A stretch of 64,000 nt of DNA from Escherichia coli 042 (GTDB taxonomy: Bacteria; Pseudomonadota; Gammaproteobacteria; Enterobacterales; Enterobacteriaceae), in NCBI RefSeq assembly GCF_000027125.1, contig NC_017626.1. The stretch is one strand, 5' to 3'. Of the stretch, positions 542-9,900 are shown piece by piece; positions within the stretch are counted from its first letter, which is position 1; every line of letters starts with the position of its first letter. The notes under the pieces were generated by a model. The model did no database searches. It was not told where the DNA came from and was given only the letters and a program-made list of their open reading frames with translations. A program made the translations under genes and the position numbers.

Positions 542-929
542 CATCGTATGCAAATCGAGTCGCTCAAGGGCGGCTTTTTTTGTACCTGTGTTTTCACTAC
601 TTTGTTTGCATGTAACGCTGATAATCTAAGAACTTCGGAAGCCCCATTTCCATCAATGATGTTCATTCATCATCCTGAAAATTAAGTAGATATAAAACTT
701 CATTGCCTTGGTCTAATGGCACAGAAATAGATTGCATTTGGCGAGTGGCATTCTTAGTGCGTCGTTGTTTAGTCATGAAACGATGCGTAAAATTGCTGAT
801 TTTATGTGTCAAAGTCCCGCAACCGGAGATGGCCTTACTTCAATGATCAACCACTATTGACGTATCCTTTTAATATCTTGATTCAATTCAGCAGGTTATC
901 GTCCAAAGTACAGCGAAGAGAGAGAAAAG

Positions 930-3821
930 ATGATTGGTACAACACCTTATCATGCGAAATATTTTGCGCATGAACTTTCCATTCTTCATTCAAACAATGG
1001 GGTGGACCGTCTGTCTCAATCGCTGTTTGATGCAAGCGTAGATCTAAACCCTCATCAAATTGAGGCGGCTCTTTTTGCTATCGAAAATCCGCTAAGCAAA
1101 GGTGTTGTGCTTGCCGATGAAGTTGGTTTGGGTAAAACCATTGAAGCTGGACTAGTGCTTTGCCAGTTGTGGGCTGAAAGAAAACGTAAACTGTTGATCA
1201 TTTGTCCTGCTTCACTGCGTCGCCAATGGGCGAGCGAGTTACAGGAAAAGTTCAATCTACCTTCTCAGGTGTTGGACGCGAAAATGTATAGCCAGCTTCA
1301 AAAAGAAGGGATCCATAATCCCTTAAATAATAAATCGATCACTATCATGTCATACCACTATGCTGCTCGGTTAGAAGAGAAATTGGTGGCTGAAATGTGG
1401 GATCTGGTTGTTATCGACGAAGCCCATAAACTGCGTAATGCTCATCGAGAAAGCAACAAAATGGGGCAAGCGTTAAAGCGTGCGCTTGATGGGCGGAAGA
1501 AATTACTACTGACCGCAACGCCTTTACAGAACTCGTTGATGGAACTGTATGGCATGTCGACGCTTATAGATGAACATACCTTCGGCGAAGTTAAAGCGTT
1601 CAGAAAGCAATATATGCAGGCAGATAGCGATATTGCGGAGTTGAAGGGGCGATTGTCGCGTTTTATCAAACGAACTCTACGCAAGAATGTGCTGGAGTAT
1701 ATCAAGTATACAGAACGTAAAGCGATCACTATTCCTTTCTATCCGAGCGAACAGGAGCAGGATCTTTATGAACGCGTACAAAAATTGCTTGAACGTGAGG
1801 ATAGCTATGCCTTACCAAAACGACACCGGCATCTGACGGGGCTTATACTCAGAAAACTACTTTCCTCAAGTACGAAAGCCGTATTGAATAACTTGCAGAT
1901 CCTTAAGACTCGTTTAGAAAGGTTAAAGCTGGAAGGTATCGTTGAAGATGATATGGACATCATCCAACAGATCATAATGGATGATGATCTTGAAGATGAC
2001 ATCGTTGAAGATGCCGAATCAGTAGCGCCAGATACAGAGTGCAAATCTGTGGATTCAGATGCGCTTCAGGCAGAAATCAATGAGCTGGAATCACTCATTG
2101 TCAAAGCAGAACAGATTGGCACTGATACCAAATCAAAAGAGTTGCTTTCTGGCCTGGAGCAAGGTTTTGCACAGCTTGCCGAAATGGGGGCTGCAAAAAA
2201 AGTCATCATCTTCACGGAGTCGATGCGAACTCAACAGTACCTTGCACATTTTCTGGAAAACAATGGCTACCAGGGAAAAGTAGTAACCTTTAGTGGCACA
2301 AACAATACACCGCAGGCAAACAAGATCTACCAGCAATGGCGCGAGGAATATCAGGGATCTTCTCGTATTACCGGGTCGGCGCAAATTGATAAACGCTCGG
2401 CTTTGATCGACCACTTCAAAGATCATGCTGAAATCATGATAGCTACAGAAGCTGCAGCTGAAGGGGTGAACCTGCAATTTTGTTCGCTACTGATCAATTA
2501 CGATTTCCCCTGGAACCCACAACGCATTGAACAGCGTATTGGACGTTGTCACCGATACGGGCAAAAATTTGATGTGGTTGTTATTAACTTCCTCAATCAG
2601 CGAAACCAGGCCGATCAACGCGTTCTTGAACTCTTAACTGAAAAGTTCAGCCTGTTTGATGGCGTGTTTGGCGCATCGGATAGTGTGCTTGGCAGCATAG
2701 AAAATGGTGTGGATTTTGAAAAAAGGATCCAGTCAATTTATGAGTCATGCCGTACCCCCGAGGAGATAGAGCTGGCTTTTGAAAGGTTGCAGAAAGAGCT
2801 GGAAGATGAAATCAATCTCAAGATGCAGAAGACGCAAGAACAGTTGCTTGAGCATTTTGATGAAGATATTCACGATATCCTTAAAATAAGGCTTGATGAA
2901 GCTCGGGAGCGCCTGGATAAAGTCGGTCGTTGGTTTTGGGCCGTGACCTGTCAGCAGCTCAAACAATATGCTGATTTTGATCATGAGCATCATCGTTTCA
3001 CTTTACGTGAATCAGTCAATGAACTGCCTGTCGGGCAGTACCAGCTGTTGCGCAAAGATGGCAGGCAAAATAGTGCGTTACAAATGCAGGATCACCACAG
3101 TTTTGCATATCGGATCAATCATCCGCTGGGTGAGTACGTCATTGAGGGAGCCAAAGCCCAGGAGACGAAAACAGCTGAAGTCATCTTCGATTACAGTAAC
3201 CACACAACGAAAGTTTCGGTGGCTGAGCAGCTGAAAGGGCAATCAGGATGGTTAACACTAAATTTGCTTACTGTTGATGCGTTTAACAGGCAGCAATTTT
3301 TAGTCTTTACCGCGAAAACTGACAACGGACGTGTGGTAGATGGTGAAGCTTGTAAACGTCTGTTCAACTTGTCTGCAATAACCAACGAAAAGCTGGATAA
3401 TTCGGCAAGTTTAGATGCATTACCTGATGACTTGATCTTACTCAAGAACAGGCAAATTGACGCCAGGCTTGCAGAAGTTTTGGAGCAGAACTATGTCCTT
3501 TTTGAAGCGGAAAGAGATAAGCTGGAAAAATGGGCTGAAGACATGATCTTTGCGGCGGAAGAAGCATTACGCGATACCAAAATGCAAATCAAGTCGTTGA
3601 AGCGAGAAGCCAGGCTGGCGCAATCGATCGAAGAACAAAAGCAAAACCAGGAAAAGCTTAAGCTACTGGAACGGCAGCAGAAGCGTCAACGTATGGAAAT
3701 TTTTGACATTGAAGATGAGATCGCCGACAAGAGGGATGAACTCATCAGTGCCCTTGAAGAGCGGATGAAGCAAAAGACGGATATCACCGAGCTGTTTACC
3801 ATCCGCTGGAAAGTTATTTAA
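930..3821 (+). CDS. SNF2-family (SF2) helicase/ATPase with C-terminal charged coiled-coil-like region; gene 1 of candidate defence operon
   Basis: 963-aa ORF from ATG 930; motifs in translation: LADEVGLGKT (motif I), VVIDEAHKLRN (DEAH), LLLTATPLQN (motif III), QRIGRCHRYGQK (motif VI); C-terminal E/K/Q-rich region. Confidence 0.85.
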   Translation: MIGTTPYHAKYFAHELSILHSNNGVDRLSQSLFDASVDLNPHQIEAALFAIENPLSKGVVLADEVGLGKTIEAGLVLCQLWAERKRKLLIICPASLRRQWASELQEKFNLPSQVLDAKMYSQLQKEGIHNPLNNKSITIMSYHYAARLEEKLVAEMWDLVVIDEAHKLRNAHRESNKMGQALKRALDGRKKLLLTATPLQNSLMELYGMSTLIDEHTFGEVKAFRKQYMQADSDIAELKGRLSRFIKRTLRKNVLEYIKYTERKAITIPFYPSEQEQDLYERVQKLLEREDSYALPKRHRHLTGLILRKLLSSSTKAVLNNLQILKTRLERLKLEGIVEDDMDIIQQIIMDDDLEDDIVEDAESVAPDTECKSVDSDALQAEINELESLIVKAEQIGTDTKSKELLSGLEQGFAQLAEMGAAKKVIIFTESMRTQQYLAHFLENNGYQGKVVTFSGTNNTPQANKIYQQWREEYQGSSRITGSAQIDKRSALIDHFKDHAEIMIATEAAAEGVNLQFCSLLINYDFPWNPQRIEQRIGRCHRYGQKFDVVVINFLNQRNQADQRVLELLTEKFSLFDGVFGASDSVLGSIENGVDFEKRIQSIYESCRTPEEIELAFERLQKELEDEINLKMQKTQEQLLEHFDEDIHDILKIRLDEARERLDKVGRWFWAVTCQQLKQYADFDHEHHRFTLRESVNELPVGQYQLLRKDGRQNSALQMQDHHSFAYRINHPLGEYVIEGAKAQETKTAEVIFDYSNHTTKVSVAEQLKGQSGWLTLNLLTVDAFNRQQFLVFTAKTDNGRVVDGEACKRLFNLSAITNEKLDNSASLDALPDDLILLKNRQIDARLAEVLEQNYVLFEAERDKLEKWAEDMIFAAEEALRDTKMQIKSLKREARLAQSIEEQKQNQEKLKLLERQQKRQRMEIFDIEDEIADKRDELISALEERMKQKTDITELFTIRWKVI

Positions 3822-3841
3822 TTGATTTGAAAGAGAAAATA

Positions 3842-6800
3842 ATGAGTAAGTACAACGAATTAGTTAAGAAGTTAAAAGAAATTTTTCAGATTGATCGACC
3901 AGAACTGGATTTCGGTATTTATCGTATTTTAAATGCACGTGCTGATGAAATTAACGACTATCTGGATAATAAGCTGAAGGCCAAAATCCAGTCTGCGCTG
4001 GCGGATGCAGGAAATGCCAATAAATCAGAATTAGAACATCAGTTGCAACTGACAATAAAAGCGGCAACTGATGCGGGTGTAGACCCTGCTGATAGCCCAA
4101 AAGTACAGGAGCTTAAAAAGCAACTGGCGGCTATGGCATCCGGAGCAAATGAGCATGAAAATGCAGTATTTTCCCATCTGCTCACTTTCTTTTCGCGTTA
4201 TTATGACAACGGCGATTTTATCAGCAAACGCCGTTATAAAGGTAATACCTACGCCATCCCCTATTCTGGCGAAGAAGTGATGTTGCACTGGGCAAATAAG
4301 GACCAGTACTACATTAAAAGCGGTGAAAACTTCGCTAATTATTCGTTCAAATTAGAAGACGGTCGTAAAGTTAGCTTTAAATTGCTCGCAGCGGACACAG
4401 CAAAAGATAACCGTAAAGATAATGAATTAGATCGCTGCTTTGTACTTATTGAGCCGCATGTTCGTACCAAAATTGATGAAGAAGGCGATGAGTACGAACA
4501 AGAATATAAGCCAGTAGAAGTGGTGAAAACTTCATCTGTGGTTGACGGTAAACTCGTTGAAACAGAAGAGTTAGTTATTCATTTCGAATATAAGGCAATG
4601 AAAAAGGGCACTAAGCAGGATGCTTTAGTGCAGTCCGCTATTTCAAAAATTCTGGCTGATAAAACAGTACAACAGCATTGGGTTGATCTTGCTAAACGTG
4701 CGCCAACCGAAAAAAATCCGTCACGTACAGAGTTGGAGCGTCATTTAACAACATATACCCAACGTAATACGGCTGACTACTTTATTCATAAAGATCTCGG
4801 TGGCTTTTTAACGAACGAACTGGATTTTTATATTAAAAATGAAGTAATGAATCTCGATAATGTGCAAAATGCAGAAGTGTTTGCTAATATTGAGAAACAA
4901 CTGCGCATGATTCAATGTTTGCGTGCTGTTGCGCTGGAACTCATCACTTTTTTGGCACAGATTGAGAATTTCCAAAAGAAACTTTGGACTAAGAAAAAGT
5001 TTGTTGTAGAGACAAACTATATATTTACCGTAGATAAGTTACCAGAGGAATTATATTCAATTGTCATTAAGAATGATGCCCAATGGGAACAATGGAAGCA
5101 ATTAGGTTTCCTCAGCGATTTTTCGGGAGATAGAGAGAAAACTCTGAAAGAAAAACAAGGGTTAATTGTTGATACTTCATTATTTGATTCCAAGTTCAAA
5201 GAGAAATTTATCAACAATATCGCTGATGTTGACACAAATGTTTCCGCTTATTTATATAGTGGAGATAATTATCAAGTGTTAAATCTTATTAAAATAAAAT
5301 ATAATAATAAAGTTGATGGTATATATATAGATCCACCTTATAATACCAATGCGTCTGAGATTTTATACAAAAACGGTTATAAGGATAGCTCATGGTGTTC
5401 TTTAATGAGTTCTCGTTTAGAGATAAGTAAATCCTTATTAAAAGAAAATGCAGCTACTTGTACAACTATTGATGAGTATGAAGTTGCTAATTTGGAATTA
5501 TTGCTAAAAGAAACGTTTACAGGATATCAAATCAGACCTGTTGTTATTGAATATAACCATCGAGGACGAGTTAAAAGTAATTTCGCTATTACCCATGAAT
5601 ATGCTTTATGGACCTTACCAGAAAATAAAGATGTAATATCGAGACAAGTTGAAATATCAGAAGAAATTAGGCGTAACTTGCGTAGAACTGGTTCAGGTTC
5701 TACTCGTGCCGAATCTGAAAGTCAATTTTATGGCATCGAAGTTGACAATAATACCCTCGAGATTGTCAATGTAACCGAAGCTTTACCAAGTTTAGATTCA
5801 GCAATTCCTACGCATCTAAATAAAGATACAACAATGGTATGGCCAGTAGATGACCAAGGGGTTGAGCGGCGCTGGTACTATGGGCGAGATCGTGTTATTC
5901 GCGAAGCTAAAGAAGGTACTGTTTGGGCGAAAAGAATAAAAGGTGAGATACAAATACATTACAGACAAGCAGGAAAACCTAAAATGCGTAAATCTGTATG
6001 GATTGGTCCAAAGCTTGACGCAAGTACCTATGGTTCGGAACTATTAAATAGTTTGTTTAACGTGACTCAGATTAATTTTTCTTTTCCAAAAAGTATTTAT
6101 GCGGTTAAGGAATGTTTAGAGTCGCTTAGTAATTCGAAGTATGCTCATTTCTTAGACTATTTTGCTGGCTCTGGTACTACAGGGCATGCAGTGGTAGATA
6201 TGAATAGGGATGATAATGGTTTTCGAAAATTTAGCTTGGTCGAACAAGGTGAATATTTTTATTCTGTTACCTTGCCTAGAGTAAAAAAAGCTATTTTTAC
6301 AACTGATTGGAAGTATGGAAAAGCACTAAGCTGTAATCCAGTTGAGCAGACATTAATAAAATATATTAAAATTGAGAGTTTTGAGGATACTCTTAACAAT
6401 ATAGCACTGAAACGTACTGAAACAACAAAGGATCTTTTCGACGATCTTAAAGAAATTCGAGAGGATTATGTTCTTAACTATATGCTTGAAACAGAAAGCA
6501 AAGGCTCACTACTCAATACTGATAATTTCAAAAAACCATTTAACTACGAAATGGATGTTACAACGGATTCCGCAGGTGCTACTGAGCGTAAGAACATCGA
6601 TTTAGTTGAAACTTTCAACTATCTCATTGGCTTACATGTGAAATCCATCGAATCCAATATCGAACGTGGCTATGTGCGTGTTGAAGGAACGCTACCAACT
6701 GGCGAGCGTACCCTTATTCTGTGGCGCGATTGCGACAAGATCGGCTATGAAGAATTGAATAAATATGCCAACAGATTCGATTTATATGCAAAAGAAAATA

Positions 6801-6946
6801 CGTTCGACGTTATCTATATCAATGGCGATCATAACTTACCTACCGCCTTTACCGTTGATGAAGAAGACGGCGAGATTGTTCGTAGCCTGAAAATCCGCCA
6901 GATCGAACCTGAATTCTTGAACCTGATGTTTGCGGAGGAGGTTTAA
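3842..6946 (+). CDS. large beta-class N6-adenine/N4-cytosine-type DNA methyltransferase (Type III Mod-like core with N- and C-terminal extensions); gene 2
   Basis: ORF track opens at TTG 3827; first ATG 3842 with AAGAG upstream, 20 bp after gene 1 stop; motif IV DPPY (about 5330-5341) precedes motif I FAGSGTT (about 6161-6181) with about 285 aa between (TRD position). Confidence 0.8.
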   Translation: MSKYNELVKKLKEIFQIDRPELDFGIYRILNARADEINDYLDNKLKAKIQSALADAGNANKSELEHQLQLTIKAATDAGVDPADSPKVQELKKQLAAMASGANEHENAVFSHLLTFFSRYYDNGDFISKRRYKGNTYAIPYSGEEVMLHWANKDQYYIKSGENFANYSFKLEDGRKVSFKLLAADTAKDNRKDNELDRCFVLIEPHVRTKIDEEGDEYEQEYKPVEVVKTSSVVDGKLVETEELVIHFEYKAMKKGTKQDALVQSAISKILADKTVQQHWVDLAKRAPTEKNPSRTELERHLTTYTQRNTADYFIHKDLGGFLTNELDFYIKNEVMNLDNVQNAEVFANIEKQLRMIQCLRAVALELITFLAQIENFQKKLWTKKKFVVETNYIFTVDKLPEELYSIVIKNDAQWEQWKQLGFLSDFSGDREKTLKEKQGLIVDTSLFDSKFKEKFINNIADVDTNVSAYLYSGDNYQVLNLIKIKYNNKVDGIYIDPPYNTNASEILYKNGYKDSSWCSLMSSRLEISKSLLKENAATCTTIDEYEVANLELLLKETFTGYQIRPVVIEYNHRGRVKSNFAITHEYALWTLPENKDVISRQVEISEEIRRNLRRTGSGSTRAESESQFYGIEVDNNTLEIVNVTEALPSLDSAIPTHLNKDTTMVWPVDDQGVERRWYYGRDRVIREAKEGTVWAKRIKGEIQIHYRQAGKPKMRKSVWIGPKLDASTYGSELLNSLFNVTQINFSFPKSIYAVKECLESLSNSKYAHFLDYFAGSGTTGHAVVDMNRDDNGFRKFSLVEQGEYFYSVTLPRVKKAIFTTDWKYGKALSCNPVEQTLIKYIKIESFEDTLNNIALKRTETTKDLFDDLKEIREDYVLNYMLETESKGSLLNTDNFKKPFNYEMDVTTDSAGATERKNIDLVETFNYLIGLHVKSIESNIERGYVRVEGTLPTGERTLILWRDCDKIGYEELNKYANRFDLYAKENTFDVIYINGDHNLPTAFTVDEEDGEIVRSLKIRQIEPEFLNLMFAEEV

Positions 6947-6948
6947 GA

Positions 6949-9900
6949 ATGGCTAAAAAACCGACCACCGGTAAAGCAGTTAAAAAAGAGACTAACAGCA
7001 AGCTGAGCTTTCATAAGCAGTTGGTTTTAAACCGCTTTATGTTCCATTTTTTTAAAGATGGCACATTGCAAGGTTTGAAGAATCGGTTAGGCGAGGATCG
7101 CTTTGAAGGCATCCATGAAGATGGCCAAAGCTTATTCTTCCATGAGCTGAGTAACTATTTATTCGAGGTCGATCTTATCGATCTCGATGAACTGCGTCGT
7201 TACGATCTCAATATCGTGCAGCACTGGCAGCAGATAACCGAGCACCGTAATCGTAAAGAAGACACAGTGCTGAACATGAAATATTTTCAGTACTTGTCGC
7301 TTCTGTTTACCGAGATCTACCTGGACTGGTACTTCAACCGTAAACAGCAATTACTCGATGGGCTAAATAACGAGCTGGCAGCATACAATGCTGAAAATGA
7401 TAAAACAGCAAAAGACCGGGCTAATCAGTTCAAATCATACGTTCTGGATGATTTGAATAAACTGGCATACTGGAACGCTACTGGTTCTGGTAAGACACTG
7501 CTATTACATGTCAATATTTTGCAATATTTACATTATTTCCAGAACGGTAATAGCCATCATTACCCGGATAAAATCATCCTGCTTACGCCGGATGAACGCC
7601 TATCGAAGCAACATTTAGATGAACTGGAAAACTCAGGATTTACCCAATACCAGTTATTCGATAAGAGTAAATCCGCGCCATTTAAAGGCACGATTGAAGT
7701 TATTGATATCAATAAACTTGCCGATGAAATGGGTGACAAAACTGTTGCCGTTGAGGCATTTGAAGGCAACAATCTGGTCTTGATTGATGAAGGGCATAAA
7801 GGCACAGGAAGTGCTGCTGGTGCCTGGATGCGCCGTCGTGACAAATTAACGCGTGACGGATTTGCGTTTGAATATTCAGCAACTTTTGGCCAGGCAGTGG
7901 CCGGTGGCAATAATGTTGAGGCAGTTGAAACAGAAATTCAGAAGAAAAAAGCAAAGCTGCTTTTTGAAACAACTGCCTTAGGTAAACTGAGCGAAGAACA
8001 GTTAGCGCAAATAGCATTAACCAGCGAAGAACAACGTGATGCGCGTATTCAGGCGACACGAGAAGTCTATGGGAAATCGATTCTGTTCGATTACTCCTAT
8101 AAATTCTTCTATGAGGATGGTTATGGTAAAGAATCACTGATTCTTAACCTTAATCCTGAAGAGGATAAAAAAGATGAGCGTCGGTATGAGTATTTTACCG
8201 CGTGTTTGCTCAGCTTTTATCAGCAACAATATTTATTCAATAAGAATAAAGAAAAATTAAATGAATTTAATATCGAAAAACCGCTATGGGTTTTTGTCGG
8301 TAACACCGTAAGTGGTGAAGATTCAGACATTCACGCAGTACTGCGTTTTTTAGCATGGTTTTTAAATCATGAATCGCAGGCAAAATCGTGGATTAAAGAT
8401 CTCATTGAAAATAAAGCGCGAATTCTTGATACCAAAGAGCGTAACATTTTTGAAAATCGCTTTACCGCACTAATGAACGGCCCGGAAGATATCTACGCAG
8501 ATATTCTTTCTCGTTTGTTTAACACCACTCACTCAGGTCAGAGACTGCGAGTTCTGAATTTAATAGGCAGTAAAGGTGAACTGGCATTACAGGTTGGTGA
8601 GGCCGAACCGTTTGGTCTTATCAATATTGGTGATGCACCGTCTCTTTACAAAATGTGTGAAGAGGATACGACATTTGATTATCAGAGAGATGATTTTGCG
8701 AAGTCACTCTTTCATACGTTAAATGACAAAGACTCGCAACTACATATTTTGATCGGCTCGCGAAAATTTACTGAAGGCTGGAGCAGTTGGCGCGTCTCAA
8801 CGATGGGATTGCTCAATATGGGCCGTGGAGAAGGTTCACAGATCATTCAGTTATTTGGTCGTGGCGTTCGCCTTAAAGGTCGCAATTATTCTTTGAAACG
8901 CAGTACACCCGGTGAGCGTCCGAAAGGGTTGCATCTGGAAAAATTAGAGACACTGAATGTATTCGGTGTACGTGCCGATTACATGGCAACCTTTAAACAA
9001 TACCTGGAAGATGAAGGGATTACGCCAAGTGACGAGATCCTTGAGCTGAATTTTGAAACTCGGCCAAATATGCCAGCAACCAGGCTTAAAACACTTAAGC
9101 TTAAAGATGGTTATAAAGATAATCAAAGACTCGGCTTTAAACGTGTCTATTTTCCCGAATTGTATGAAGTTCCTGCTGATTTTCAGGGGAAAATTAAGCA
9201 GCCGCATATTAAGCTGGACCTATACCCGAAACTTGAGTCGATTGATACCAGCAGAAAAGGGGACAATACTCCGGTTAACGTGCGTAATGAAGCGAAGTTA
9301 GATTATAAAATCATTAGTGCGTTTGATTTTGATCGGCTTTATCTCGCCATTCAGAATTATAAACTACAACGCGGCTGGTCAAATTTACGTGTGGATAAAC
9401 AACGTTTGATCGACTTTTGTACCGGTAAGACAAAGATCGGAAATAGTTGGTATACCCTTTTGATTCCAGCTTCAGAGCTTGAGATTAAGCAATATGCAGA
9501 TATTGCTAAGCAGGAAGATATTATGCTTCGTCTGCTGACTGATTATACTGATCGCTTTTACAACACATTGAAAAATGCTTATGAAGGTCAGTTTTATGAA
9601 GTCACGCAGGTGAAAGAAGATGATCCTGGTATGATCAAAATGTACCATTTCGAGATCGAAGAAACTGATGATGGGTTGGCATATGCCAGTCGGCTGGAAC
9701 AATTACAACAATTGGTCATCGACGGCGAAATCGGTAAAGCAAAATCCTGGAGTGCATCCGGGATGGTTGCTATTACCTTTGATAAACATCTCTATTATCC
9801 ACTTCTTTCGATTGAAAAAAATGCCAACATACCGCTAAAAATGCGACCGGCAGCACTGGGTGCATCAAGTGAGATTACTTTTGTCCATGATCTTCAGTCT

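Follow-up and report, generated by a model that had tools for sequence, protein, structure and literature searches.

Type III restriction-modification (R-M) systems are encoded by two genes, mod followed by res. The modification subunit, Mod (about 640 amino acids; class range about 600-700), is a beta-class DNA methyltransferase whose target-recognition region lies between motifs IV and I, and the restriction subunit, Res (about 900-1000 amino acids), is a superfamily 2 (SF2) ATPase carrying a C-terminal PD-(D/E)xK nuclease domain. Such systems hemi-methylate a short asymmetric site, and their ATP-dependent cleavage requires two unmodified sites in inverse orientation. In other defence systems, including class 1 DISARM, ARMADA and BREX type 3, a methylase is paired with a helicase. 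The locus described here lies in a 64,000-nucleotide stretch of Escherichia coli 042 (RefSeq assembly GCF_000027125.1, contig NC_017626.1), hereafter the window; all coordinates are window positions. It comprises three genes on the plus strand: gene 1, encoding a SNF2-family helicase of 963 amino acids (930..3821); gene 2, the gene of interest, encoding a methyltransferase of 1034 amino acids identical to RefSeq WP_000049830 (3842..6946); and gene 3, encoding a Res-like SF2 ATPase with a C-terminal PD-(D/E)xK nuclease domain (1126 amino acids; 6949..10329). The locus agrees with Type III systems in sequence, fold, motif order and gene order, and PADLOC files the products of genes 2 and 3 under Type III. 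It departs from them in the size of both proteins and in its third gene. The reading we favour, with a probability of roughly 55%, is that gene 2 encodes the active Mod of a Type III-like R-M system of long form, to which a DrmD-like SNF2 protein is accessory, and that the two ends of the methyltransferase form a platform for the Res partner.

The methyltransferase motifs are found where the original prediction had placed them (at about residues 497 and 775): DPPY at amino acids 497-500 (nt 5330-5341) and FAGSGTT at amino acids 774-780 (nt 6161-6181). Both are invariant across 69 homologues. Since the order is motif IV, variable region, motif I, the protein belongs to the beta class; the modification is probably specific for N6-adenine. 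The only Pfam match in the protein is N6_N4_Mtase, at amino acids 491-790. Sequence matches to Mods of solved structure (Mbo45V, 7dsu, 6.6e-24; Helicobacter pylori Mod, 6k0w, 1.1e-19; EcoP15I Mod, 4zcf, 1.1e-12) align to approximately amino acids 457-860 only, and the same three proteins were the top Foldseek matches (E values from 1e-15 to 4e-17), none of them spanning more than about one quarter of the model (TMq at most 0.26). The claim that the catalytic part occupies only the middle of the protein thus holds.

At 1034 amino acids against 644 for the EcoP15I Mod chain, the protein is indeed about 1.5 times the size of a Type III Mod. The implication that this size is unusual did not survive comparison with relatives. 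The PADLOC Type III methyltransferase profile PDLC03646 (1057 positions) matches the protein from end to end (amino acids 1-1034 against positions 1-1057; 1624 bits), and full-length relatives of 1020-1060 amino acids number at least 8000 database proteins from Enterobacteria, Vibrio, Shewanella and others. The extensions had been put at about 480 residues on the N-terminal side and about 250 on the C-terminal side, with no recognisable motif in either. No recognisable domain was found in them here either, but the lengths need correction: because the part of a canonical Mod that can be aligned with the gene 2 protein is itself preceded by about 90 residues and followed by about 40, the true extensions are about 370-390 amino acids at the N end and 135-150 at the C end. 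These values agree with two recombination breakpoints, at amino acids 389/390 and 887/888, described below. The resulting modules of 389 and 147 amino acids have no counterpart in solved Mods.

An alternative to be disposed of at this point is that the long open reading frame (ORF) is an artefact, either a frameshift fusion of two genes or a core with disordered tails; both had been named beforehand as findings that would overturn the original prediction. Among 5426 complete E. coli genomes, 166 have a match to gene 2, and in many of these, independent of one another, the gene is 100% identical. The full-length architecture is present in the at least 8000 homologues mentioned above and in 80 loci from many phyla, and a frameshift fusion is therefore ruled out. 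An AlphaFold2 (AF2) model of the full-length protein, computed from 69 sequences, has a mean predicted local distance difference test score (pLDDT) of 81, a predicted template modelling score (pTM) of 0.73 and regular secondary structure throughout. From these values the extensions are folded, and disordered tails are ruled out as well. We consider that the artefact explanation has next to no chance of being correct: gene 2 is a real, intact beta-class DNA methyltransferase gene.

The boundaries of the extensions became apparent from a second E. coli allele. In strain WS0115A, the gene 2 protein is about 99% identical to that of the window over amino acids 1-389 and about 98% identical over amino acids 888-1034, but only about 40% identical over amino acids 390-887, while both neighbouring genes are near-identical (about 99%). 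The protein can thus be divided into an N-terminal constant module (amino acids 1-389; 3842..5008), a Mod-like core (amino acids 390-887; 5009..6502) and a C-terminal constant module, an alpha/beta domain in the AF2 model (amino acids 888-1034; 6503..6943). The core, with a G+C content of 0.339, has the size and content of a complete canonical Mod. Nowhere in the operon is the G+C content lower than in the exchanged DNA (about 4830-6630), at 0.339; the N and C modules have 0.39-0.42. To see how general the pattern is, 118 pairs of close homologues with N modules at least 95% identical were compared. Core identity fell below 60% in 90% of the pairs (median 36%), whereas the median for the C module was 92%. 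Among these close homologues the Spearman correlation was 0.91 between the N and C modules and -0.14 between the N module and the core. The core at amino acids 390-887 is thus repeatedly exchanged as a cassette between constant N and C modules. The lowest conservation in the whole protein (identity 0.15-0.23) falls at amino acids 551-725, within the exchanged cassette and within the target-recognition region between DPPY and FAGSGTT (about amino acids 551-750; nt 5492-6091). The stretch separating the two motifs, assigned to target recognition in the original prediction, behaves as such.

The partners of the methyltransferase were surveyed in 80 loci from different species, 69 of which allowed the position of a Res gene to be assessed. 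In 68 of these 69 loci, which come from many phyla, a Res-like gene is encoded downstream of the methyltransferase gene and in the same orientation. The gene 3 product itself matches PADLOC REase_III (PDLC03654) from end to end with 2318 bits, contains ResIII/DEAD domains in Pfam, and matched no PDB chain by sequence. Its GSGKT (Walker A; nt 7483-7497), DEGH (nt 7786-7797), SAT and QLFGRGVR (motif VI; nt 8848-8871) motifs and its C-terminal PD...DPK signature (YPDF...IDPKG; nt 10012-10086) are invariant in 37 of 37 sequences, an arrangement that, judged from the motifs, corresponds to the layout of a Type III Res, within a protein longer than the canonical one. In the 37 complete three-gene loci, the pairwise divergence of the N module correlates closely with that of Res (rho 0.85), as does that of the C module (0.73); the value for N against C is 0.72, and for N against the core only 0.26. 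Correlation of the N module with SNF2 is lower, 0.51 for the helicase core and 0.40 for the tail. The N and C modules are therefore co-inherited with the Res-like gene rather than with SNF2.

These data bear directly on an explanation proposed in the original prediction, namely that the extensions could mediate interaction with the two helicases, and on its narrower form, in which they are adaptors for the SNF2 protein, as might be imagined from the helicase-methylase pairs of DISARM, ARMADA or BREX-3. A SNF2 gene stands beside the methyltransferase gene in 65 of the 80 loci, upstream in 58 and downstream (order methyltransferase-Res-SNF2) in 7; since linkage is kept in two gene orders, function is favoured over chance adjacency. 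The helicase core of gene 1 is DrmD-like, and long helical or coiled-coil segments are predicted in both proteins. However, four loci (L014, L046, L078, L087) have no SNF2 gene within 9 kb, two metagenomic contigs (L006, L007) also lack one, and every one of these SNF2-less loci retains full-length N and C modules, which argues that the modules are not dedicated SNF2 adaptors. The weaker covariation with SNF2 points in the same direction, as does the lack of similarity to ArmB, the methylase that pairs with ArmA in ARMADA. We thus regard the SNF2-adaptor explanation as distinctly improbable. As to helicase interaction in general, the part of the proposal concerning gene 3 fits the data, docking of constant modules to the Res-like protein being plausible from the correlations; the part concerning gene 1 would find less support in the same comparison. 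The downstream SNF2 order was found in Cardiobacterium, Neisseria and Pasteurellaceae (L048, L050-L055).

What the end modules might otherwise do can be considered from their anatomy. The AF2 models resolve the N module into a long helical hairpin (amino acids 34-120), a low-confidence loop (121-166), a beta-sheet domain (167-254) and a helical domain (259-389). The segment at 121-166 is nearly invariant and contains the sequence GEEVxLHWANxDQYYIK as well as RRYK at amino acids 130-133. The helical domain contains DYFIHKDLGGFLxxELDFYIKNE and ends in a basic patch, QKKLWxKKKF (here QKKLWTKKKF, amino acids 378-387). Blocks of this kind hardly vary between phyla and surpass even the methylase motifs in conservation, and mean pairwise identity in the 37 three-gene loci is 0.59 for the N module against 0.39 for the core. 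When the N-terminal part was modelled alone, pTM dropped to 0.47 from 0.73 for the full-length protein; the models thus suggest that its subdomains are packed onto the remainder of the protein. The gene 2 protein can also be aligned, over amino acids 237-941, with a shorter Type III family of PADLOC (PDLC03638, 816 positions). As this alignment begins at amino acid 237, the helical domain is shared more widely than the first 236 or so residues. The N module gave no Pfam match in 32 family members and none in PHROGs, in the PDB sequence profile search or in the fold search. For the C module, no Pfam match (amino acids 840-1034, 24 members), PHROG match or PDB profile match was obtained. Origin of the N module by internal duplication of either neighbouring protein was considered and rejected, no similarity being found; homology with ArmB was rejected in the same way.

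The invariant clusters of Lys and Arg at the module boundary (amino acids 378-387) and in the loop (amino acids 130-133) could indicate that the N module is a DNA-handling element (a clamp, a guide for sliding or translocation, or a sensor of DNA state) that extends the DNA contact of the Mod core, and not a docking domain. Sensing of unmodified DNA had been offered in the original prediction as another possible role of the extensions. Its retention with or without SNF2 and its conservation above that of the catalytic core are in line with this idea. Set against these points is the co-inheritance of the module with Res, and we judge a DNA-handling role unlikely overall, if the least unlikely of the other roles considered for the module. 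A further proposal is that the N module constitutes a second enzyme, an unrecognised nuclease, hydrolase or nucleotide-binding domain with an active site made of its invariant acidic, His and Lys residues. The near invariance of the GEEVxLHWANxDQYYIK and DYFIHKDLGGFLxxELDFYIKNE blocks across phyla would be expected of such an enzyme, yet no catalytic fold or family was matched, and gene 3 already supplies a conserved PD-(D/E)xK nuclease. The chances of this last proposal appear slim, slimmer than those of the SNF2-adaptor explanation.

We infer the platform role of the end modules from their being constant and co-inherited with Res, and several points weigh against it. Co-inheritance can come from linkage and recombination history alone. 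Ordinary Type III mod alleles, such as the phasevarion mod genes, likewise show a mosaic centred on the target-recognition domain; in the present family, the central mosaicism sets off the N and C modules clearly as the parts that stay constant. The most conserved N-terminal segment (amino acids 121-166) is modelled at pLDDT below 50, so that the fold searches may rest on an imperfect model. The invariant residues of the N module include many polar ones (D125, E144/E145, N152, D154, Q155, K159, D312, H316, E326, D328, K332, E334) which, along with the basic patches, would suit catalysis or DNA binding as well as docking. Finally, a literature search found no paper on the three-gene system, and neither a methylation motif nor a restriction phenotype is known for the family.

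The mechanism that we infer for a long-form Type III-like system would involve physical docking, Mod dimerisation, Type III-like cleavage and a contribution from the SNF2 protein. The core at amino acids 390-887 would set the sequence specificity, and strains would swap it as a cassette. The N and C modules would make up a fixed platform joining this core to the enlarged Res-like ATPase-nuclease encoded directly downstream, and such a constant platform would let specificity change without the Mod-Res interface having to evolve anew. The N-terminal helical hairpin may add to dimerisation of Mod. On the model of EcoP15I, self DNA would be methylated by the Mod-Res complex, whereas at unmodified sites the complex would undergo an ATP-driven switch to a translocating or sliding state, followed by cutting by the C-terminal PD-(D/E)xK domain of Res. 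The DrmD-like SNF2 protein would be a frequent but dispensable third partner that may load or remodel the complex on DNA.

Comparison with the SNF2-containing defence systems set the locus apart from each of them. Like class 1 DISARM (DrmD-DrmMI-DrmA-DrmB-DrmC), it has a DrmD-like SNF2 core beside a large adenine methylase in a defence island. Gene 1, which shows the Pfam domains SNF2-rel_dom and Helicase_C with GLGKT as motif I and DEAH as motif II, matches PADLOC DrmD (PDLC02619; 4.9e-198) over amino acids 31-671 only and scores 665 bits against NCBIfam DrmD_b, where the cut-off is 950. DISARM membership is ruled out: DrmA, DrmB (DUF1998) and DrmC (PLD) are lacking, the only PADLOC match of gene 3 is REase_III, and the methylase, beta-class and Mod-like, matches no DrmMI profile. 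The approximately 290 C-terminal residues of gene 1 (amino acids ~670-963; window 2940-3818) lie beyond the DrmD match and end in a long, charged, coiled-coil-like stretch; they have no PHROG match.

ARMADA type II (ArmABCD) has been described in two preprints (bioRxiv 10.1101/2025.09.15.676423 and 10.1101/2025.09.22.677730), a YprA-like helicase (DUF1998) and a PglX-like methylase being the defining features of ARMADA (10.1101/2025.09.15.676423). It occupies the same slot in E. coli, upstream of nanS-nanM-nanC-fimB, with a Swi2/Snf2 helicase gene first, followed by genes for a very large methylase and a helicase-nuclease. Nonetheless, ArmB is PglX-like (NPPW, gamma class) and bears no similarity to the gene 2 protein by BLASTP or hhalign, ArmA is 25% identical to gene 1 in the helicase core only, ArmC is a YprA/DUF1998 helicase whereas gene 3 is without DUF1998, and the locus has no equivalent of ArmD. 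With no YprA helicase and an unrelated ArmB, membership in ARMADA is ruled out. BREX type 3 and BREX-related (DUF499) systems are characterised by PglZ, a BrxC or DUF499 ATPase and a BrxXI-type methylase (PMC12839542). These too are ruled out: the operon has three genes only, none of its top PADLOC matches is to PglZ, BrxC or DUF499, and the sole BREX match of gene 1, among the best 25 of 48 families, is the BrxHI/BrxHII helicase profile. Hma, consisting of a 5-methylcytosine methylase and an ATPase, is ruled out as well. The four-gene, restriction-like defence system Gao_RL includes a DNA-modifying enzyme and may bear some resemblance to the locus. It is listed by a review among systems that modify DNA.

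Genes 1 to 3 form a tightly coupled operon. The mechanical ORF list starts gene 2 at a TTG codon (3827), 5 codons upstream of ATG 3842. The latter is the true start, as it is backed both by the homologue alignment, in which this methionine is invariant in 69 sequences, and by RefSeq, which uses the same ATG; an AAGAGA-type ribosome-binding site precedes it. The reading frame runs to the TAA at 6944-6946. Gene 3, named in RefSeq "DEAD/DEAH box helicase family protein", starts 2 nt past the gene 2 stop, to which its start is coupled, with a GGAGG site ahead of it. A hairpin with a perfect 15-bp stem (10341..10373) between gene 3 and a convergent 100-amino-acid ORF on the minus strand (10376-10678; RefSeq WP_000771541, hypothetical) is probably a bidirectional terminator that closes the operon. 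The product of this ORF has no match in PADLOC or NCBIfam. The same arrangement recurs in Vibrio cholerae (55% identity) and in five gammaproteobacterial loci (L009, L010, L012, L025, L040), and the ORF may serve the cassette as an accessory gene or regulator restricted to certain lineages.

The island has a G+C content of 0.34-0.45 against a window mean of 0.486. The operon lies just upstream of other restriction-gene remnants and of nanM and nanC; insertion sequence elements, pseudogenes and nan genes make up the flanks, in which no further operon genes were found. At window positions ~10990-12620, an identical E. coli locus (L001) is annotated with pseudogene fragments of a phosphorothioate-dependent restriction endonuclease, an HNH endonuclease and a sialate O-acetylesterase, which are debris of earlier island contents. 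The slot at window ~900-11700 was also compared with that of O157 Sakai (L004; 5357499-5391646), and is a hotspot of defence-system exchange. In about 25 of the 80 related loci, extra genes are found between mod and res, in gaps of about 1 kb (L013, L015, L017, L021, L024, L025, L028, L033, L035, L045 and others) or about 1.9 kb (L041, L067, L073, L077, L026). Inserts that were sampled match PADLOC PDC-S02 (DUF1016-type PD-DExK), AbiU-like/AIPR and HEC-01A/B (AAA ATPase and partner); one resembles a Schlafen/AlbA_2 protein, as judged by eye only. The inserts are candidates for "embedded" defence genes similar to those reported from Hma, BREX, DISARM and Type I R-M systems.

About 150 of the 5426 complete E. 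coli genomes contain all three genes of the cassette. In a scan of one genome per species (approximately 100,000 representatives), the N module was detected in at least 534 species, from phyla including Proteobacteria, Bacteroidota, Planctomycetota, Verrucomicrobiota, Actinomycetota, Firmicutes, Chloroflexota, Spirochaetes and candidate phyla. Using the N-terminal 470 amino acids as query, 2373 clusters at 50% identity were retrieved. Its loci lie within defence islands and harbour candidates for embedded defence genes.

The family as such was already catalogued in the PADLOC profiles, with large size as its norm. New here are the domain map (N module, amino acids 1-389; core, 390-887; C module, 888-1034), the pattern of cassette exchange and the finding that the modules go with Res and not with SNF2. 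Annotation pipelines give the genes generic names such as "DNA methyltransferase" and "DEAD/DEAH box helicase family protein", and defence-system tools probably score the locus as a plain Type III R-M system plus an orphan DrmD. About half of the methyltransferase consists of a conserved set of domains without annotation, structure or literature, in a family that is common. One could go further and conceive, tentatively and with more doubt than belief, of the long Mod, the enlarged Res and the usual SNF2 protein as a distinct, phylum-spanning class of ATP-dependent restriction ("long Type III"). In such a class the Mod core would be a plug-in specificity cassette between two constant modules of novel fold, by which it would be coupled to the nuclease-helicase; coupling to a motor of the chromatin-remodeller type would be direct or go by way of the nuclease-helicase. 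The N module would represent a new domain for joining protein to DNA or protein to protein, and the class would be a mechanistic bridge between classical Type III R-M and defences of the DISARM/ARMADA type. Should the SNF2 protein prove to have a specific role, Type III restriction would be connected through this family with the SNF2-methylase pairs of DISARM, ARMADA and BREX-3. If the end modules are indeed a platform coupling Mod to Res, this would explain how specificity is swapped freely without breaking the restriction complex, and would offer a handle for engineering specificity.

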